Below, piece after piece: positions 23,288 to 33,576 of a stretch of DNA of 64,000 bases. A model generated the notes under the pieces. It was not told the origin of the DNA. It did not search any database and saw nothing but the letters and a program-made list of their open reading frames with translations. The position numbers and the translations under genes were made by a program. Numbering within the stretch: the stretch's first letter is position 1; each line of letters opens with the position of its first letter. The stretch lies in the NCBI GenBank assembly GCA_963749915.1, contig CAVVOP010000022.1, positions 96,001 to 160,000 of the forward strand, read 5' to 3'. The stretch comes from an uncultured cyanobacterium. GTDB taxonomy: Bacteria; Cyanobacteriota; Cyanobacteriia; Cyanobacteriales; Cyanobacteriaceae.

Positions 23288-24352
23288 ATGACACTTCAGC
23301 AAAAATCTCTGGAAATACCGATTACGAGTAAGGCTCTGGCAACTGCCGAACAGTTTGCCTCTCAACAACCTCATCCTCAAAAAAAAGAAACAGTTCGCCT
23401 TAATACTCTGGCAGTTTTGGCGGTGCATGACTATTTGGAGTTAATGGCCATAGAAACCGAACTTCAGGAAAGTGATAGCTGGAATCCGGTGGTGCGTTTG
23501 TGTGAAGATGTGGGGGACTTAATGGTGAGCGGATTAGGCAAACTGGAATGTCGTCCACTGTTGCCAGATTCAGTAAATAGGCGTATTTATCACCTGCCTC
23601 CAGAAGTTTGTAGCGATCGCATTGGTTATGTCGTTGTGGAGATAAATAATGACCTAAAACGATCAACTTTGTTAGGTTTTACTCCCATGGTGGTCAATGA
23701 TGAATTACCGCTTACACAGTTACAACCTCTTACTGATTTGCTAGAACATTTGGAGTCTCTAACTCAACCCCAAGTCAATTTAAGTCAGTGGCTTAACAAT
23801 ATCTTTCCATCTAGTTGGCAGGAAATAGAAGCGATTTTTTCTCTCGAACCAGAACCAACTACTTCCCCAGAAGAAAATCAGCCTTCATCGAAGTTAGGTA
23901 AATGGTTAGAGTCGATTGTAGATGCGGGGAAAAATATTTGGGCAGATTTATCGGGTTCGCAAAGGCCGGAATTACAAAGTGCAGGAGCTTTTCGTAGTCT
24001 TACGCCAGTGAATAATTTATTGCCCGAGTGTGAACTAATGCGAGCTAAGTTAATTGATTTGGGAGTACAATTAGGTTCTCAAAATGTAGTTTTGCTCCTT
24101 GCTTTAACCCAAGAGCCGGATCAGAAACTGCGGCTTATAGTTCAGATGTATCCTGTCCCTGAGGAAGAGTATCTACCATCAGATCTTAAATTAGCTTTAC
24201 TTTCTGAATCAGGAGAAGCTATTCAGGAAGTTACTTCAAGAACTCAGGATAGAGGCATACAACTAAAACCATTTAAAATTCCTCAGAATACTAATTTTAA
24301 GTTAGAAATGAGCCTAGGTGATTTTAGTTTAACGGAAACTTTTAGTTTTTAA
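23288..24352 (+). CDS. DUF1822 family protein
   Basis: NTLAVLAVHDYL, SDSWNP, GKLECRP, DRIGYVVV, LLGF and VNLSQWL motifs. Confidence 0.88.
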   Translation: MTLQQKSLEIPITSKALATAEQFASQQPHPQKKETVRLNTLAVLAVHDYLELMAIETELQESDSWNPVVRLCEDVGDLMVSGLGKLECRPLLPDSVNRRIYHLPPEVCSDRIGYVVVEINNDLKRSTLLGFTPMVVNDELPLTQLQPLTDLLEHLESLTQPQVNLSQWLNNIFPSSWQEIEAIFSLEPEPTTSPEENQPSSKLGKWLESIVDAGKNIWADLSGSQRPELQSAGAFRSLTPVNNLLPECELMRAKLIDLGVQLGSQNVVLLLALTQEPDQKLRLIVQMYPVPEEEYLPSDLKLALLSESGEAIQEVTSRTQDRGIQLKPFKIPQNTNFKLEMSLGDFSLTETFSF

Positions 24353-24356
24353 GGCT

Positions 24357-26711
24357 ATGACTAAGTTAGTTATTCTCAATTTAGGAGAGGGAAGTTTCCA
24401 GAATGGTTTTCCCAATATAACTATGCAGTTGGGGGAAACGGGAAACCTGTGGATGCAAGTGACTGGAAGTTTACCACCTGCACCAGAATTACCAAAACTT
24501 TATCGCTCTTGGAAGATATTATATAAAGCTTTAAATTATTACAGCCATAAAAGTAGATCTATTGAAGTGCAAGAAGCTGGTATCACCAATTTTTCTGAGT
24601 ATGAATATAGTAATATTTGTCAAAAATTAGATCAGAGTCTTAATGATTGGCTTGGTAATTCTGGATTTACCAATATAGAACAACAGCTAAGAACCCAACT
24701 TAATGCTACAGACTCAATCAGAATAATTATTCAAAGTGACAATCATGATGTTTGGCAGTTACCCTGGCATCGCTGGCGATTAGTTAAAGAAGATTATCCC
24801 CAAGGGGAAGTTGCTTTCAGTTTCACTGAATATCCGCCCCCGCCACTAAAATTAACCAAAAAACGAGACAAGACTAAAATATTGGTGATTTTGGGCAACA
24901 GCACCGGGATTAGGGTTCAAGAAGATCAAAAATTCCTGAAAAGGTTACCCAATGTCGAATTGCTCCTGTTAAATGAGCCACAGAGACAGGAACTCAATGA
25001 GCGACTCTGGGAACAAGGTTGGGATATTCTCTTTTTTGCCGGACATAGCCAAAGCGAGGATGAGGGAGAAACAGGACGGATTTATATCAACCAAAACTCA
25101 GAAAATAACAGTTTGACTATGGGAGAGCTAGAAGAAGCCCTCAAGCGAGCCGTAGCCCAGGGGTTACAGTTAGCTATCTTCAATTCCTGCGATGGTTTGG
25201 GTTTAGTGCGAGAATTGGCATCGGCGGCGGTTCCCCTACCAGTGGCGATCGCCATGAGGGAACCTATAGCTGACCAAGTAGCACAATTTTTTTTGAAGTA
25301 TTTTTTGTCCGCTTTTGCCTCTGGAGAAGATTTTCAGGTGGCAGTAAGGCAGGCGAGAGAACAACTCAGAGGCTTGGAAGGAGAATTTCCCGCCGCTAGT
25401 TGGTTGCCGGTAATTTGTCAGCACCCGGCGGTAGAGCCTCCTCGTTGGTGCCAGCTCAGTAAAAGCGGGGGAGTAACGGGAAAAAAACTAGCTTCGACCT
25501 TGACTCTCAGTTTTTTGGTCACTGTCTTAATAATAGGAATGCGAATGCTGGGCATTTGGCAGTGGTGGGAACTGAACGTTTTTGACTTGCTACTGCGGAT
25601 GCGTCCTCATGAGGCAGTAGATCCCAGAATATTAATGATTATCGCTACGCCAGAAGACATAAAACAGCAGTCGGTGAAACCTTCGGGCAAAGCTTCATTA
25701 TCAGATCTGACTCTGAGTGTACTATTACAAAAACTACAGCAGGAGTATCAACCGATAACTATTGGTTTAGATATTTATCGGGATTTCCCTGTGGAAACTG
25801 CCAATTCCGAATTGGCAACTTATTTGGAACAGAATAACCTTTTTGGAGTCTGTAAGGTCAGATCTCCCCAGGATGGCGACGAGCAAGGTGTTGCTCCCCC
25901 CCCAGAGATTTCTGCTCAACAGATAGGCTTTGGTGATTTCGTAGCTGATGCCGATGGAGTTGTCCGCCGTCAGCTTTTGGCGATGAGTCCCTCGGCTGAT
26001 GCTACTGATCCCTGCATAGCAGTTAATAGCTTTAGTCTTTTGGTTGCCCTTCATTACCTGCAACAAGCTCAGGGAATCAAATTTGACTACACTCCAACAG
26101 GAGAATTAAAAATTGGTGATGTGGTTGTTCAAGAATTAGATGGTTACTTTGGTAGCTATCGAGCTACGGATACTCGTGGACGACAAATTTTGTTGAATTA
26201 CCGCTCTGGGGATTCTCCTCTGGAGATTGCCACCACGGTTACTGTAAGAGATATCCTTGATGACAGGATTTCTAGTAGTGTTTTATCGCAACTCAAAGGG
26301 CGAATTGTCTTGATTGGCATTGCCGATTCCCTTGCTACTAGTGGCGATTACTGGCTCACACCCCTGAGTGCCACTCAGCCCATTGCCCAGAAAGAAATAC
26401 CGGGAGTATTCATTCAAGCTCACATGGTCAGCCAGTTAGTTAGTGCTGTTTTGGATGGGCGATCTTTATTTTGGCTTTTACCTTGGTGGGGGGATTTTTC
26501 GTGGACTTGGGGATGGTGTTTACTCGCTAGTTTACTATATCGGTCGGGTTTGTTGCCAATAGAAGTTCGTATTTTGCTAATATTAGGCTTCAATTTGGGA
26601 GTGGGTTATCTCCTGTTTCTTCGAGGTGGTTTGGTGCCTCTAATTCCTTCAATTATGGCGATCGCTCTGGTTAGTTTTGGGGAAAAGATATCTTCCCAGA
26701 AATTAGATTAA
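24357..26711 (+). CDS. CHAT (caspase-like) + TM + CHASE2 protein
   Basis: FFAGHS and IFNSCDG dyad, a TM segment, then CHASE2 motifs (DPRILMI, IGLDIYRD, DADGVVRR, PGVFIQA). Confidence 0.88.
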   Translation: MTKLVILNLGEGSFQNGFPNITMQLGETGNLWMQVTGSLPPAPELPKLYRSWKILYKALNYYSHKSRSIEVQEAGITNFSEYEYSNICQKLDQSLNDWLGNSGFTNIEQQLRTQLNATDSIRIIIQSDNHDVWQLPWHRWRLVKEDYPQGEVAFSFTEYPPPPLKLTKKRDKTKILVILGNSTGIRVQEDQKFLKRLPNVELLLLNEPQRQELNERLWEQGWDILFFAGHSQSEDEGETGRIYINQNSENNSLTMGELEEALKRAVAQGLQLAIFNSCDGLGLVRELASAAVPLPVAIAMREPIADQVAQFFLKYFLSAFASGEDFQVAVRQAREQLRGLEGEFPAASWLPVICQHPAVEPPRWCQLSKSGGVTGKKLASTLTLSFLVTVLIIGMRMLGIWQWWELNVFDLLLRMRPHEAVDPRILMIIATPEDIKQQSVKPSGKASLSDLTLSVLLQKLQQEYQPITIGLDIYRDFPVETANSELATYLEQNNLFGVCKVRSPQDGDEQGVAPPPEISAQQIGFGDFVADADGVVRRQLLAMSPSADATDPCIAVNSFSLLVALHYLQQAQGIKFDYTPTGELKIGDVVVQELDGYFGSYRATDTRGRQILLNYRSGDSPLEIATTVTVRDILDDRISSSVLSQLKGRIVLIGIADSLATSGDYWLTPLSATQPIAQKEIPGVFIQAHMVSQLVSAVLDGRSLFWLLPWWGDFSWTWGWCLLASLLYRSGLLPIEVRILLILGFNLGVGYLLFLRGGLVPLIPSIMAIALVSFGEKISSQKLD

Positions 26712-26730
26712 TGGTGACATCAGGAGTTTT

Positions 26731-27525
26731 TTGATGAATAACAAAATATTTAATCTCATTATTGCTTTTAGCCTTTTTAATTTAACAGTTTTACCGTTAC
26801 ACCTACAAGCGCAAATGGCTGAATCAAATCAGAATATTAATATGTCGGTTAATTTTAAACAGCCAGAACCGCCACCGGATGCTCCGAAGTCTGGAAGAGC
26901 AAAAGGAGGAGCAAGTAGGGGTGAATGTTCTCTTGCTAGCTCTACATTAAAAGAAGAGCTAACTTTAATTCCTTTACTTCCCTCCAATGGTTGGGGTTTG
27001 ACAGTGTCTGAGTCCCCGACGCTATGGGTGTATATTTCTTACCCCTCCGGTAGATTTAATGGGGAAACGGAAAGACACCTAACGGCAGAGTTATCGGTGG
27101 AAGAGCGAGAAACCGATCTTAAATTAGAACCTAAAAGTTATCCTCTTGAATTACCTAAAACTTCAGGGATTTTTAGTGTTTCTCTACCTCATTCTTTAGG
27201 GTCAAATAAATGGTACCGTTGGTATTTAGTGGTTGATTGTCAGGGGGAAAATATCTCGGGAAATGATGTCTTACAAGTTGAGGGTTTTTTATACCGAAAA
27301 GGGTTAAATGACTTGACAAAACCTTCAGAGTCCGCTAGGTCATCGGAGTTGGTTCGTTTCTATACCGACAATCATATCTGGTACGATGCTTTTCATGAAG
27401 CGGCTCTCCTGCACTGTAATAATCGCTCGAATAATGAATTGAAAAATTATTGGCAAACTTTGTTAAACATTGATGCAGTTGAGTTAGATGAGGTTAGCGA
27501 TCTCTTTCTTATTTGTCCCAATTAG
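26731..27525 (+). CDS. DUF928 family secreted protein
   Basis: GGASRGEC, GLTVSESPTLWVY, YRWY and IWYDA motifs. Confidence 0.88.
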   Translation: MMNNKIFNLIIAFSLFNLTVLPLHLQAQMAESNQNINMSVNFKQPEPPPDAPKSGRAKGGASRGECSLASSTLKEELTLIPLLPSNGWGLTVSESPTLWVYISYPSGRFNGETERHLTAELSVEERETDLKLEPKSYPLELPKTSGIFSVSLPHSLGSNKWYRWYLVVDCQGENISGNDVLQVEGFLYRKGLNDLTKPSESARSSELVRFYTDNHIWYDAFHEAALLHCNNRSNNELKNYWQTLLNIDAVELDEVSDLFLICPN

Positions 27526-27706
27526 GTAATGTTTTCCCCAAAGACTAATGGCACTTTCCGATTTAGTCAGACAATAATATGGGTTTAATTATTTCTGAAA
27601 TTAGTTGTTTTGAAGTTTCATCAAAGCAAACTAAGGGATAATCTGGGTCATATTTTTGGGTATAAAAATGCTATAATAACTAAGAATATTTGTTAAGAAA
27701 AGGAAA

Positions 27707-28312
27707 ATGGAAGCGTTCACCGAAAGTGTGGTTGTGTCGCTCTCTATTCCTAAGGGATTCAGAGTAACTCCAGAACAGTTCGAACAACTAGCAGACATCG
27801 AACAACTAGCACGATTGGAGTTAACTAAGACTGGAGAATTAATTATCATGAGTCCCACTGGGGGAACTGCTGGAAGAAAAAATAGCCGTTTAACCCAGCA
27901 ACTTAGAAATTGGGCAGATAGAAACGTTACAGGAGAAGTCTTTGATTCTTCTACAGTGTTTGTTTTACCAAATGGTGCGAGAAGAAGTCCCGATGTCAGT
28001 TGGATTAAATTAGAAAGGTGGAATCAACTCACTCAAGCCCAACAAGATGGATTTCCTCCTCTAGCTCCTGATTTTGTGATCGAGCTAGTCAGTCCCAGTG
28101 ACATCAAAAGCCAACGATATGAAGACTTGCAGGCAAAGATGCAGGAATATTTAGATAACGGAGTGCAACTAGGTTGGTTAATCGAACCATCAGCAAAAAA
28201 AGTTGAAATATATCAATTTGGGCAACAGGTAGAGATTTTAAATAATCCTCAAACTTTATCAGGAAAAGATATCTTACCTGGATTTATTTTAGATTTAAGT
28301 GAGATTTTTTGA
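27707..28312 (+). CDS. Uma2 (DUF820) family endonuclease-like protein
   Basis: GELIIMSPTG, FDSST.F.LPNGA.RSPDVSW, APDFVIELVSPSD and KMQEYLDNG motifs. Confidence 0.93.
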   Translation: MEAFTESVVVSLSIPKGFRVTPEQFEQLADIEQLARLELTKTGELIIMSPTGGTAGRKNSRLTQQLRNWADRNVTGEVFDSSTVFVLPNGARRSPDVSWIKLERWNQLTQAQQDGFPPLAPDFVIELVSPSDIKSQRYEDLQAKMQEYLDNGVQLGWLIEPSAKKVEIYQFGQQVEILNNPQTLSGKDILPGFILDLSEIF

Positions 28313-28428
28313 TTTCAGAAAATAATGTGAGCAAAATTACGATTTGTTTCCATCAAGGATTTTTGAAAGGGTAGCTATCCCACAGGACCGGGACTACCTA
28401 CTTTCGAGTGTACTCCCACAATTATTAA

Positions 28429-31224
28429 TTAAAGCCAATTACCGACTATCACAAATGGAGCCCAAAAATAAGGTCTTCGTCAATTTAGATCTCTCAAAAA
28501 ATAGAGTTGGGTTTGTCGAACAGCTTGGGCAACAGTTGCTCCATCTCTCAATTCTTCATAAAACTTAATCATAAACTCAGCAGTGGCTGAATCGTTGACT
28601 TTCCACAAACTGGCTAATGTAGTACGCACTCGTGCCTGTGCCGATACCCCTGCCAATCCCAAAGCGGCTCGCCGATTGCCTTGAGCCGTTTCACAAGCAC
28701 TGAGAATTAGTAATTCGATTACTTGAGGACTATCAGGGTTACTAATCTGGAGAATCCGATGGAAATCTTTAACTTTGATTCGCTTTCCCCAAACGAGAAT
28801 GTAAGTTTCGTCTGGGTTAGAACTAAATTCACCATGAGTGGCGATGTGGACCATCGGAAAAGTAGCCGAGTCAATCTGTTGTTCTAGTTTTCCCTCGGTA
28901 AAGGTTTGATTTAACAGTATTTCAGTGGCAGCATCAGTCAATTCTTGGATGTTTGCTAGTTCAGTGGCGACATAGGGCAGAGCTTCAAATTCGATTCCAT
29001 CAACTACCTGTCCTTCGCTGACTCCCGCAGTTAAGACTTTGAGTTGTTTTTGTCGGGGACGGGGATCAAAAAGCTGCCGATTAGGAATTGCCGCTAGGGC
29101 ATACTTTTCGATTAAATATTCTCCCTCATTATAAAGTACAGACAGGGGAATGTTCCGTAGGGTATCGTCTAGGACAAAAACTAGGGTCGTTATTTGACCT
29201 TTCTGCCTCAATGTTTCTAAGTCTTGTTCAATGGGTTTAATCATCCATTGATAGACCTTTTGGGCTTCTTGTTTAACTTCTTCGGTGAAACGAGATTGTC
29301 TTAGATAGCCCTGGAGTTGTTTAATTGTCTCTTCAACTTCTGTATGGGGGATGAAAGTGGCTTGGTGAGCGAGGGGTTGCTGGGGTAGTTTGAAAATAAG
29401 CTCCAAACGATCTGAGAGAATTAAGGGATAGAGAAATGCGGCTTGGGGATCTATTTCCCCCACCACTGTTTCCACCTGCAATTCGGGAGTTAGAGAACAT
29501 TGCAAGAAATTTTCTAGTTCCGAGAGGCGGAGAAAGTCAACGAACTTTAAAGCCTGAGCGGGAAAACCTTGAGAATCAGATTCGGAAACATCTTCTGCCG
29601 TTAAAAGTAGATCAATTAACTGACGGTATAGAGGTTCGACGAAATCTCGGAAAGAAAATTGCACATCTGAGTCGATGGTAAGTAAGTCCCTGCGCACAGA
29701 TTCTAGAGTTTTGGTCGCCTGTTGGTAAATAACGATCGCTTTTTTTCTATCTCCTTGAGCTGACCATAATCTGCCCAACTGCCATTGCCATTGATAGGCT
29801 ATCTGCGGTGCTTGAACAGGTTGAGCTAGTGATAAGGCTGTCGATGTTAACTTAATCGCTTCTTGCCGACAATCCTGAGCTTTTTCACACCAATTAGATG
29901 ATTTCTCCGAGAGATTATACCAATCGGAATTCACGTTGTCTAGCCACCAAGCACGATATTCGTACAATCCCCCAAAATTACCAAGAACATAAGATTCTAA
30001 AAACTGATCTGGAATGGATTTGGCATTATTATATGCTTGGTTGAGCATTTGTCCAATCCTGTGCCAATCGGTGGGATTATTTGTTAGTGCAGACAGACAA
30101 GCTTTACCTTTGGTGAAGTTAATCTGAGCGTAAATTGTTGCCTTATTTATGGGTAGGTGAGAAAAGTCAACCTCCGATAATAATTGATTGGCTGTAGCCA
30201 ATTGTTGACGATCTCCAGAAGCAGTTTCTAAAATTAGGTTGACAAGATTGAGCTGGGCTGAGATTCTGGTAGTTTCTAGAGCAGATTGGGAGATAGCCGC
30301 AGAAGTTCTTTCAGAGGTAACCGAAGGTGTGCCTACGGCGATTGCCTGTGAGTATTGTTGTTGGGCTTGTTGATAAAAATTCTTTGCTTCTTGGGGGAGA
30401 TTAAGGGATATAGGCTCAATAATATCACAGCGCCAAGGGATATAGTCGTATTTGGGGGAGGCTTGACGATCACGGATAATATTCCCCCTGGCCCGTAAAG
30501 TATTGCCAAGGCTGAGTCTGGTAGCTGCTGGATCTGTATCTGAAGAGCTTTGAGCTAGTGTTTGTAAGACTAACTCTGACTCTTTTAACTTACCTAACAA
30601 GCGCAGAACATTACCGAGGCTACGCCAGCCATTTATTTCCAGTGCATCTGATTGTTGTGGGAGAATCTGAATTTTTGCCTCCAGAGTCTGGACTGTTACA
30701 TCTTCACAACTATTAATGTCCAGCTCTAAAGCTGAGAGCAACATGACACAAGCACCACTGTAGAATCCCAATTGCTGTAGGGCTTCTGCTTGGTAAATTT
30801 GATTACGGACTATTCCTGGGTGATCTCTTAATTGCTTCTCCGAGATAGTAGTAGCTTTCTGCCAGTTTTCTAGGGCTAATTCTGGTTTGCCCAAACTCAA
30901 CTGCAAGCGACCTAAATTAGTCAAAGTTATAGCCAAGTTTTGCCAGTCTTCTTGGGCTTGAAAGAGTAGGATAGCTTTTTCGAGGTAGTTGACGGCTGAG
31001 ACAAACTCCCTCGCACGATAGTCAGCCTCTGCCTGTTGTACCAACTGTCGAGCATTATCTGCCGGTATTTGGGACAGTACTGATGTAACTCCTGTACTGA
31101 GAAAAATACTTAGTAGGAATACAATCAGATATCTTTTGAGACTGGGATTTTTCCCTAGCCAAGAACGGAAACCTTCTAGAATAGAACTCACCGCATTGTA
31201 GAATAAATACCATTTTCTTGCCAT
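28429..31224 (-). CDS. Secreted TPR + CHAT domain protein with a premature TGA at 28480-28482
   Basis: TPR motifs, QWQWQLGR, VHIATHG, LSACETAQG and ASLWKVND. The frame continues past the TGA as RRPYFWAPFVIVGNWL* ending at 28429. Confidence 0.85.
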
Positions 31225-31490
31225 GTTCTTTTTCTCGAATTTACATTTACTAACGGAATACCGATGTCACCTGACTTCGGAGTTGGCAGTTCGGAGTTCT
31301 GAGTTAGAAAAGTAAGGCTCATCTGCGTTATAAGGTTTAATCCGTCTATTCTACATCATATCTGCTGAGGATATTTTCCTTTTGACTCAGATGTTGCACT
31401 AGCACTACGTGCAATGTTGTCGTTCATTATCAAACCCTAACTAGAAGATTCTATTGTTAGAATCTTAGTTGAGTAATAATTAATAATTAA

Positions 31491-31601
31491 GGGGAAGTAG
31501 CTCAATGGTAGAGCCGCGTTTTACTTTCCGCATAATGCAAAGAAAGTTCCTAATATTGGCTTATAACCCGCAGGTTGCAGGTTCAAATCCTGCCTTCCCC
31601 A
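31491..31601 (+). ncRNA. tRNA-like RNA with a 39-nt insert in the anticodon stem (nominal anticodon UAU)
   Basis: Acceptor GGGGAAG/CTTCCCC-A, D arm GCTCAATGGTAGAGC, T arm GCAGG-TTCAAAT-CCTGC. Anticodon stem GCG[insert 31519-31557]GG / CCCGC around the loop CTTATAA. Confidence 0.85.
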
Positions 31602-31682
31602 AAGAAAGGGGGCAAAAGAGATTCCTTATGATGGCGAAAGCCATTAGTCTTGGGTACTAACATTATCTCTCGCCCTCTTTTT
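31602..31682 (+). ncRNA. Second structured RNA (Y-RNA-like) or attenuator hairpin
   Basis: AAAGGGGGC/GCCCTCTTT and AGAGAT/ATCTCT stems, plus an internal TGATGGC-GAAA-GCCATTA GNRA hairpin, followed by a T-run. Confidence 0.6.
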
Positions 31683-31707: not shown

Positions 31708-33576
31708 ATGAATAAGGCAACACTGAGATTATTTAATGCCATCGAGGTTAACAACAAAGACAATAAAAATATTCCTCAATCCATTTTGGCTAGAACAATT
31801 CAAAATGGTTATATTCTTGATTCAGCAATTGAGCCAGAGGAAGAATTGCTAGATCTAATCGAAAGTGTTGTTGGTATTGCTGGAATCAAAGCTAATTCTG
31901 CGTTTCATAAATCTTGGGCGGTAGTTCAAGATTCTTGGATGGAATCACTGGTTATTCAACAAATTATTCACTACATTACAACCTATGGATTTGAGAGTTT
32001 AGGCATTTATCGAGAAGATGCAGTTTATATTCCCCAGGAAGTCTTAGAGTTACCCACTATCACAGATGATATTCCCTTAGTTGTGATCAAAGCGATAACA
32101 GCGGAAGAAATTCTGGATAACATCATTAATTTAGCGGATGGTATTGCCTTAGCACAAGAAACCCTTAATGATATTATGACGATCGTCAAAAGTCATGATT
32201 ACGATCCCAGTTTTGTAGAGAAAATAGACAATCGAGAATTAAAAGCCTTATTATACGATTTCTATGGCATCGTACCATCTGAGCCGGTAGAATTTTTACG
32301 TCATTTAATCAGTAAACTAACCGATGAATCTTTACTGATCAAAAATAAAGATCTCATCGATAAAATTAAACAATCTAACGGTAAATTTTTAGATACTTTA
32401 CTCAAAGATGCACCAGATGATTTAGCTTCTATTTTCTTTCGCTTTAAACCCTTATTCTTAGCAATGAAGTCGATTTCTAATAACAAAAGATATTTTAATC
32501 AGTTAAGAAAAAAAGCAAATAAATTACATAAACCTCTCCCACAAGATTATCTCAATAGTGTTAGTAGTCAAATCAAGTATGAAAAATTAAATTTAGAAAC
32601 TTTAGTAGAAAGACTGAAAAAAGCAACTATTTTTCGAAAAATTCGCCTCGCTTATGCCTTAAAATATCGTCTAAGTGCCTCAGATTCTATTGTTTATCGA
32701 GTCAGAAATGGGCGTGGTTGGACCACAGAATTTGACTTTGAATGGTGGGAAGTTGTCCAAGAAAAAACTCAAAAAGCATTGGATATAGTTGTCGATTCTA
32801 TTGTTGATGATGTGAAAAAAAATGTTGAGGGTAAAACTCTTTATATTCCCAATCATGTTTATTATGCTTTACCCGCTACTGAGAAACAATTTACGGGATA
32901 CTTACCAACTGGTACTTATGTTTTAACTCCAGAAGATATGATTGTCGGTATCCATTGGACAAATACTGAAAAAAAGAGAGTAGATTTAGACTTATCTGTA
33001 ATTGGCGAATCAGGTAAAATCGGTTGGGATGCGGCTTATCGTTCCCAAGAAAAAGAGGTATTATTCTCTGGGGATGTTACAGACGCACCCCCGCCTAATG
33101 GTGCTTCAGAGCTTTTCTATCTTAAACAAGCACACCAAGAAGCAAGAATATTAAAAGTAAATTACTATAATTTTGCCAAGGGTGATAAAGTAGAAGCTAA
33201 GATCTTGGTAGCGCAAGAAAAACCCAAAAATTTTGGGACTAACTATATGGTGGATGTAAATAAAATGATTGCTTCAGCCAATATAAATATTACTAAAAAA
33301 CAAAATATTCTTGGTTTGATTGTTAATATAAATGAAGAAAATAGGTTTTATTTTGCTAACATAAGCATTGGTAATTCGATTACTTCTAGTAATAATAAAC
33401 AGTCCCAACAGGCAAGAAAATATCTAGTGAGTAAGTTGGTTAATTCCCTTGATTTGAGAGAAATTTTAACGATGGCGGGTGCCAAAATTGTGGATGAAAT
33501 ACCTGAAGAAGAAGAATCTATTAATCTGTCTCCAAAGGCATTAGATAAAACAACTATTATCAATTTAATTAGGTAA
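31708..33576 (+). CDS. Hypothetical protein with helical (TROVE-like?) N-part and TerD-like C-terminal domain
   Basis: QQIIHYITTYG and PVEFLRHL in the N-part. GIHW...VDLDLSV...IGW...LFSGDVTDAPPPNGASE in the C-part. ATG at 31708. Confidence 0.7.
   Translation: MNKATLRLFNAIEVNNKDNKNIPQSILARTIQNGYILDSAIEPEEELLDLIESVVGIAGIKANSAFHKSWAVVQDSWMESLVIQQIIHYITTYGFESLGIYREDAVYIPQEVLELPTITDDIPLVVIKAITAEEILDNIINLADGIALAQETLNDIMTIVKSHDYDPSFVEKIDNRELKALLYDFYGIVPSEPVEFLRHLISKLTDESLLIKNKDLIDKIKQSNGKFLDTLLKDAPDDLASIFFRFKPLFLAMKSISNNKRYFNQLRKKANKLHKPLPQDYLNSVSSQIKYEKLNLETLVERLKKATIFRKIRLAYALKYRLSASDSIVYRVRNGRGWTTEFDFEWWEVVQEKTQKALDIVVDSIVDDVKKNVEGKTLYIPNHVYYALPATEKQFTGYLPTGTYVLTPEDMIVGIHWTNTEKKRVDLDLSVIGESGKIGWDAAYRSQEKEVLFSGDVTDAPPPNGASELFYLKQAHQEARILKVNYYNFAKGDKVEAKILVAQEKPKNFGTNYMVDVNKMIASANINITKKQNILGLIVNINEENRFYFANISIGNSITSSNNKQSQQARKYLVSKLVNSLDLREILTMAGAKIVDEIPEEEESINLSPKALDKTTIINLIR

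Follow-up and report, generated by a model that had tools for sequence, protein, structure and literature searches.

We analysed a 64,000-nt stretch of DNA (the window) from a cyanobacterial assembly of 4.69 Mb in 34 contigs (G000, the host genome below), in which a tRNA cloverleaf carries a short insert in its anticodon stem. Our best reading of the sequence comparisons is that this element belongs to a widespread family of tRNA-shaped RNAs in bacteria and phages, and is not a broken or intron-split tRNA. Judged by the same comparisons, the RNA family is conserved and functional at the family level. We consider it probable, if well short of certain, that the RNA and the gene for a 622-aa protein form one co-transcribed cassette, that host enzymes free the RNA, that the protein binds both this RNA and its own leader, and that the resulting RNP acts around tRNA or translation. 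The features of the locus are collected in Table 1.

Table 1. Features of the tRNA-shaped element and its neighbouring gene, in window coordinates.
Feature	Position	Strand	Details
Candidate extended -10 promoter, TGTTAGAAT	31455..31463	+	Putative; separated from the RNA by 27 nt
tRNA-shaped non-coding RNA, linear carrier, class I	31491..31601	+	Rfam RF00005, family model R1, covariation in 40 carriers
Acceptor stem, 7 bp	31491-31497/31594-31600	+	Direct sequence reading
D stem	31500-31503/31511-31514	+	Direct sequence reading
39-nt insert between tRNA positions 29 and 30	31519..31557	+	Conserved bulged helix, built from strands B (31521-31531) and A (31537-31551)
Retained anticodon hairpin, 2 bp + 7-nt loop	31558..31568	+	UAU at 31562-31564; CAU in relatives, other anticodons elsewhere
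T stem	31577-31581/31589-31593	+	Direct sequence reading
Discriminator (A)	31601	+	CCA not encoded in the 111-nt element
Leader hairpin, second motif copy in reverse order	31603..31682	+	A 31612-31626, GNRA hairpin 31632-31643, B 31663-31673
622-aa protein gene	31708..33576	+	N-terminal alpha/beta part, basic helical middle, C-terminal TerD fold

A preliminary description of this DNA had reported a 111-nt cloverleaf with perfect acceptor, D and T arms, a 39-nt structured insert, a UAU anticodon and no encoded CCA. Direct reading of the sequence confirmed this layout, as did the Rfam tRNA model, which scored the element at 53.6 bits (E 1e-8; cut-off 29). The family model R1, of which the element itself is part, gave 102.7 bits. 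None of 200 shuffled sequences was as stable as the whole 111-nt RNA (z = -3.08). The perfection of the arms held for the complementarity of the acceptor, D and T stems, but the predicted best fold of the G000 copy loses the D stem (pair probability 0.02), with a minimum energy of -35.5 kcal/mol compared with -30.7 kcal/mol for the cloverleaf with its three-way junction. This loss is due to C26, private to this genome, since tRNA position 26 is A or G in the seven relatives. Two further private changes of the G000 copy are the UAU anticodon and the single insert. Apart from tRNA, no Rfam family matched in the window or in 16 loci, the rows for SraG and CRISPR-DR55 being weak and below cut-off.

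The insert itself folded as had been claimed, with pair probabilities of 0.95-0.99 for ACTTTC/GAAAGT and 0.65-0.99 for the apical GCA/TGC. Its removal in silico was also borne out, ARAGORN then calling a 72-nt tRNA-Ile(TAT) with a 5-bp stem and a CU-UAU-AA loop. On the intact element ARAGORN made no tRNA call without intron mode, and in intron mode it called tRNA-Lys(CTT) with a 37-nt intron. Because many neighbouring deletions likewise yield the TAT call, ARAGORN cannot fix the boundary of the insert; the sole break that gives a 5/5 stem with U33 and a purine at 37 lies between positions 29 and 30.

Among 20 genomes of the host family, 8 contained the long carrier, at 72-103 bits on R1 (ordinary tRNAs scored at most 65), and exactly those 8 encoded a homologue of the 622-aa protein. 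At none of the 8 loci was there an uninterrupted tRNA, which speaks against the insert as a one-off. Two tandem inserts (164-165 nt) were present in 6 of the 8 cyanobacterial copies, some with a spare anticodon-like hairpin; the copy in G007 has a single insert and lacks the anticodon hairpin. Contig ends interrupt the loci of G005 and G017; the family gene of G017 (L265/L266, G017:C94) is matched in two parts and may be frameshifted or mis-assembled. Across the phylum, the protein was found in 4 of 401 sampled genomes, all 4 in the host family. A Pirellulaceae genome carries the same RNA and leader hairpin ahead of a 60% identical gene; a search of genome contigs with a single protein query returned one locus. 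That the element is a decayed tRNA pseudogene, a one-off insertion or an assembly artefact is extremely improbable. The private changes and the predicted D-arm misfold of the G000 copy allow some relaxation in this lineage, but the same architecture recurs, with covariation, in 7 relatives, the Pirellulaceae genome, metagenomes and phages, which refutes decay for the family. The earlier argument against neutral decay thus stands, on family conservation and covariation.

The bulged helix of the insert is a two-strand motif, 5'-GCANANNNNGUUCCU paired with 5'-UACNNNYCGC (consensus of 301 copies). Homologous loci came from metagenomes (the 80 best among at least 513 matches) and from viruses (79 loci out of 191 matches); 125 of 164 were kept after exclusion of loci whose upstream DNA was shorter than 250 nt or a duplicate of another's, and of loci that had no N-terminal match. 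Within 600 nt upstream of the gene, on the coding strand, the motif was present in 119 of the 125 loci, from bacteria and phages, against 1 on the opposite strand, 0 in coding DNA and 0.2 in shuffled sequence. Most loci had 2-4 copies, clustered within 300 nt of the start codon, and the last hairpin ended a median of 27 nt ahead of it (40 nt or less in 81 of 103 loci). Six loci lacked the motif within 600 nt, two of which have a more distant carrier. When strands were picked by their invariant letters alone, the three variable positions were fully paired in 231 of 243 hairpins, compared with a mean of 52 and a maximum of 71 for shuffled partners, and 55 different cores occurred among these hairpins. 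This pattern suggests that the middle of the helix is selected for structure and its edges for sequence, as for a protein site. A terminator role for the hairpins was considered, but only 65 of the 243 have U-rich tails. In the host assembly we found two copies of the motif, in the insert and in the leader hairpin, and no others. At one locus (L021:2741-2815) a further imperfect hairpin, with GATGTATTCT / AGAATTAATAGATATCATC arms, stands just 5' of the motif hairpin and may be a second, different RNA motif.

The motif is carried by plain hairpins, by tRNA mimics in linear form and by YrlA-like mimics in circularly permuted form. A tRNA-shaped carrier was found at 50 of the 125 loci (43 linear, 7 permuted); the other 75 had none in the locus DNA examined, so that a tRNA body is not required, in cis at any rate. 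The preliminary description had named covariation in homologues as a check, and it was found. An alignment of 40 linear carriers had 93.5% paired cells and 202 double changes, a level that none of 500 shuffles reached, although related sequences inflate these statistics. Double changes fell in 24 of 30 pairs, slid controls being far lower. Pair counts for the acceptor and T stems are circular because both stems, and partly the D stem, had served in carrier selection; the anticodon stem and insert helix were not used there, and insert pair 47-82 showed 21 double changes and zero breaks. A Levitt pair was present in 38 of the 40 carriers (G15:C48 in 21, A15:U48 in 17), and its covariation argues that the L shape is kept. 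U8/A14, TTC and A58 were found in all 40, and G18G19 in 38. Together with the linkage of motif to gene and the co-occurrence in the same 8 of 20 genomes, this covariation favours one of the original suggestions, a non-permuted tRNA mimic with a putative protein-binding helix grafted onto its anticodon arm.

The 54 linear carriers fall into two classes. In class II (42 carriers) the motif replaces the anticodon loop on a 4-5 bp stem, whereas in class I (11 carriers: 6 cyanobacterial, 4 other perfect, 1 imperfect) it sits at 29/30 and the anticodon hairpin is kept; one carrier was unclear. CCA is encoded in 14 of the 54. A perfect class I hairpin in the same register occurred in 5 independent lineages, where shuffled linkers (rate 0.017) would predict about 0.7. 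The class I loops hold U33, a purine at 37 and a 7-nt length constant, with the anticodons UAU, CAU, UGU, UCU, UGG and UCC; permuted carriers also show GGU, AUU and GAU. Acceptor stems remain family-typical whichever the anticodon, and presumably mismatch the identity rules for Pro, Thr, Arg, Gly and Ile. Ten circularly permuted carriers with YrlA topology and closed acceptor stems were found, one of them in the cultured cyanophage S-CRM01; another permuted match (L073) was discarded as the join of two tandem linear carriers. A viral scan for the class I layout returned 14 stretches, which by eye were 8 motif carriers and 6 ordinary tRNAs. Two of these 8 (L347, L349) have degenerate strands, and several are permuted, with the break at 29/30. 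In a few phage RNAs, read by eye, the motif seemingly takes the place of the D arm.

The weight that had been placed on the UAU anticodon was not justified by these comparisons. In the seven relatives the same hairpin reads CAU in 5 and CAU with one extra base in 1, and is absent from 1, so that UAU is, as far as the alignment goes, private to this genome and not conserved; in addition, the 42 class II members have no loop at all. A special AUA-reading tRNA-Ile(UAU) that replaces the tilS/CAU route is not supported, since the relatives have CAU and tilS is present in the host genome, scoring above cut-off. The host genome also holds a separate CAU tRNA, which we take to be Ile2-like. A third CAU tRNA, the elongator tRNA-Met of G003, G006, G008 and G010, was not found in G000, where the neighbouring gene is present next to a different neighbour (L212-L214); an assembly gap is the likelier cause. 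The element as a replacement for this tRNA was rejected, because relatives hold both and the G000 copy has UAU.

The precise position of the insert bears on another early suggestion, a novel short intron. The 622-aa protein or a host enzyme would then remove the helix at 29/30 and turn linear and permuted genes into mature tRNAs. Such an intron would account for the exact 29/30 break in five unrelated linear lineages and in permuted carriers, which recalls the pairing of linear and permuted bulge-helix-bulge (BHB) tRNA genes; 4 phage contigs encode uninterrupted tRNAs that have this anticodon arm, with CAU, and different acceptor stems, and elongator tRNA-Met, which all 4 relatives tested possess, is the one not found in the host assembly. 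However, the BHB, the hallmark of archaeal and eukaryal introns, has 0 of 4 central pairs here and 0-2 of 4 across 11 class I carriers, and the splicing endonuclease EndA (PF01974) was not found in the host by a search that was positive in 4 archaea. At 39 nt the insert is shorter than a group I/II ribozyme core (at least 200 nt), the window has no Rfam intron match, the host genome has no group I intron (RF00028), and a structure search found no catalytic fold in the protein. Moreover, with a single fixed junction, 42 of the 54 carriers would be left without a canonical loop, most of the cyanobacterial copies have a doubled insert, the motif also occurs in tRNA-less hairpins, acceptor stems do not track the anticodon, and relatives G003, G006 and G010 hold the element beside a normal tRNA-Met. 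An intron is therefore disfavoured, and we rate it as very unlikely. A related idea is that the helix is a processing signal, a bacterial counterpart of the BHB, at which the protein, with or without RtcB, excises at 29/30 to give mature tRNAs or tRNA-like RNAs on demand. We give this little credence; if true, it would amount to protein-dependent tRNA splicing in bacteria and phages. In a milder form, the retained loops may together act as sentinels for anticodon nucleases, all of them connected to a single effector.

Neither the second motif copy, 10 nt downstream, nor the link to the next gene had been noticed before. The leader hairpin (-31.9 kcal/mol) begins 2 nt past the discriminator, its strand B stops 34 nt short of the start codon, and it is kept in 6 aligned relatives. 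A simple scan found no terminator between the tRNA-shaped RNA and the gene. On the upstream side, a TG/TAG-TTAAACT element stands at comparable distance in 5 of 7 relatives; a consensus promoter scan did not report the candidate promoter of Table 1. Positions 23288-31224 of the window hold a Uma2 gene in a typical cyanobacterial cluster, unrelated to the element, whose transcription points away from the cluster; the cluster also encodes what we take to be CHAT-domain proteins with CHASE2-like and TPR parts and a DUF928-like gene. No conserved neighbour gene was found across the loci, the largest neighbour cluster covering 6 of 125. A stand-alone rtcB (L024, G000:C20:265928-267019) lies about 2 kb from a tRNA-Ala gene, unlinked to the element.

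This compact arrangement would suit a leader that works only in cis, in which the tRNA body would serve as a t-element, a cut signal to generate the 5' end of the mRNA, and the helix as an operator. The 2-nt spacing, the lack of a detected terminator before the gene and the concentration of motif copies within 300 nt of the start all fit. Some phage carriers, however, lie 17 kb, 96 kb or more than 100 kb from the gene, which points to action in trans, and others lie downstream of it. Permuted carriers have closed acceptor stems, CCA is encoded in more than a quarter of linear carriers, and the helix is inside the piece that cutting would remove. We hold an exclusively cis-acting role to be quite unlikely.

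Of 8000 proteins scored, 2225 were homologues of the 622-aa protein, the nearest named ones, from Geminocystis sp. NIES-3709 and Cyanobacterium sp. Dongsha4, being 82-83% identical. At 50% identity the family comprised 1609 clusters. The 622-aa protein matched no Pfam or PHROG family, and PADLOC gave 0 matches among 5 family proteins. Its structure model (pLDDT 83.8) ends in a TerD fold (Foldseek, 2kxt, E 1.8e-5) and matched proteins of Campylobacter and Lactobacillus phages over the full length; Foldseek rows to large helical proteins, botulinum complexes among them, had TM-scores near 0.1 and were dismissed as noise. For the helical part, neither a Foldseek match at E<=0.001 nor a solved relative by sequence was found. 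Residues 236-345, which are basic helical repeats, have a median net charge of +14 (+4 to +25) in 141 homologues and conserved F/R/K/H residues. NF041916 matched residues 407-475 weakly (33 bits; cut-off 600). The nearest named Atlas clusters, TerD and Prok-RING_4 (scores 0.88 and 0.86), serve as leads only, and the nearest Atlas clusters are 70-91% viral. No plasmid record was found. We propose that this protein is the cognate RNA-binding protein of the motif helix. The host genome also encodes a distant paralogue (G000:C22:457354-459435, L331) of 694 aa, NF041916-like, with a TerD-type C-terminus and no RNA motif upstream.

A motif scan of viral contigs returned 24 stretches, and the protein was encoded in 6 of 10 records tested and in 4 of the 5 complete ones; among class I viral records the protein was present in 4 of 5, and in 3 of 3 complete. 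In the cyanophages S-CBWM1 and S-CRM01 the family gene sits inside the tRNA array. In a complete 35.6-kb phage (G439, L048:1486-1577) a motif-bearing tRNA-like RNA heads a tRNA cluster and the protein was not detected; a near-identical twin of this RNA occurs in L044, and the G439 RNA could be a decoy for the protein of another element. Phage Phass-1 (OQ749652; L276:6008-6467) has a six-hairpin motif array on the downstream side of the gene, about 1.2 kb away. The array overlaps a CDS annotated as hypothetical, and by eye an apparent tmRNA start comes after it. In S-CRM01 an annotated reverse-strand ORF, g173c, overlaps a motif array (L275:2791-2937) and is probably spurious. A complete phage with the RNA and no detected protein, like the tandem RNA repeats directly 5' of a stand-alone, patchily distributed gene, is what a type III-like toxin-antitoxin system would produce, with a toxic protein neutralised by the repeated RNA and RNA-only phages carrying the antidote. 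But Pfam, PHROG and PADLOC gave no toxin match, no terminator was found between repeats and gene, and in many large phages the gene stands among the phage's own tRNAs, so we attach very little weight to this possibility.

Taken together, our preferred reading leads to the following model. One transcript from the candidate promoter would run from the tRNA-shaped RNA through the leader hairpin to the end of the 622-aa gene, and host RNase P and 3' trimming enzymes would excise the RNA. Once freed, it would take the L shape and show the bulged helix on its anticodon arm, where the protein would bind to form a stable RNP. The leader helix would let free protein repress its own translation, and in this way match protein output to RNA supply. 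The RNA would neither decode nor be spliced; its tRNA body would confer nuclease resistance and probably present the protein to the tRNA-handling machinery. The setting may be a phage-host fight over tRNA and translation, as the position of the gene in phage tRNA arrays weakly suggests. Against this model count the predicted D-arm misfold of the G000 copy, the 75 of 125 loci with no tRNA-shaped carrier, the 6 of 125 loci without the motif within 600 nt and the G439 carrier with no detected protein. The perfect anticodon hairpin in five lineages also counts against a pure scaffold, because a scaffold needs none.

A variant of the same model gives the tRNA body an active job, close to the anticodon-nuclease decoy of the preliminary description. 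Here the RNA would be bait: cleaved at the loop it retains (for class II, at the U-rich linker), it would free or activate the bound protein. We consider this sentinel role unlikely, as 42 of the 54 linear carriers have no loop and many loci have plain hairpins only; besides, no nuclease or ligase is a conserved neighbour (with the largest cluster at 6 of 125 loci) and none of the 5 proteins matched PADLOC. For class I, which retains the loop, it may still apply: there U33, purine 37 and the 7-nt length are constant under varying anticodons. Also in its favour, the gene lies within phage tRNA arrays and the host has rtcB, though not near the locus.

For the 622-aa protein family, the cassette model supplies a hypothesis of function, and it explains a class of pseudo-tRNAs with long anticodon arms in phage tRNA arrays. 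The motif has been grafted onto tRNA bodies in at least four ways, and the system occurs in cultured organisms (Geminocystis, Cyanobacterium and the cyanophages S-CRM01 and S-CBWM1). A new RNA tag could perhaps be made from such a short motif and its dedicated protein.

Several known systems resemble the new family in part. Linear and permuted BHB tRNA genes are paired, according to 10.1101/312249. Like the present element, archaeal and algal BHB tRNA introns are short inserts at a non-canonical stem position, with a break point common to linear and permuted forms; unlike them, the new family has no BHB and no EndA, its insert sequence is conserved and also occurs outside tRNAs, and most members are non-decoding. 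Engineered tRNA scaffolds, made for stable RNA expression, have the same layout, with a cargo helix in the anticodon arm, whereas here the layout is natural, conserved and tied to a cognate gene. The proteins of Prok-RING_4 (PF14447) and MXAN_6230-SCO0854 (NF041916) have the TerD fold in common with the 622-aa family, in which the RING finger is absent. For PF14447 proteins Pfam describes ROT/TROVE-like repeats plus TerD and guesses at a role in RNA processing. Unlike loci of the 622-aa family, 12 loci of distant RING/TerD relatives, including the G000 paralogue, had neither motif nor carrier.

The Y RNAs (YrlA, YrlB, Yrn1/2) that partner Ro60/Rsr contain a tRNA-mimic domain with a conserved elbow (PMC4201824; 10.1101/312249), and PMC12135203 records a phage case as well. 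In both systems, found in bacteria and phages, a protein-binding bulged stem (a candidate one here) extends the anticodon stem, and several RNAs, some of them plain hairpins, lie on the same strand just 5' of the partner gene. A tRNA-like domain with conserved tertiary contacts is likewise found in the new family, as in YrlA, and 10 members have the permuted YrlA topology, the element of the window being linear. The partners differ: that of the new family has no detectable Ro60/TROVE similarity and ends in TerD, whereas Ro60 ends in vWA. TROVE (PF05731) was unmatched in the host genome, and the family alignment compared with 17 TROVE proteins gave an hhalign probability of 0.15% and a best hmmsearch E of 0.28. 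The motifs differ too, GCANANNNNGUUCCU / UACNNNYCGC being conserved in both strands, in contrast to the Ro-binding GNCGAAN0-1G of YrlA; the new motif was absent from 20 TROVE loci, and Rfam Y RNA models matched neither the window nor 16 loci. The tRNA-shaped carriers are for the most part linear, having true 5' and 3' ends, and a subclass keeps the anticodon loop, unlike YrlA, which has none.

In the literature searched, for the most part the main texts of freely available papers and including the accessible parts of PMC4201824, 10.1101/312249, PMC12135203 and PMC7824862, neither the motif nor a TerD-ended partner was described, and this pair of tRNA-mimic RNA and protein is apparently undescribed so far. 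By analogy, the pair would work like Ro60/Y RNA while standing apart from the Y RNAs in its other protein, its other motif and its mostly linear form. Our results thus point to a second, independent-looking Ro60/Y-RNA-like system, built from a large unannotated protein family and a precise RNA motif, in which linear and permuted tRNA mimics occur side by side, an observation that bears on the origin of YrlA.
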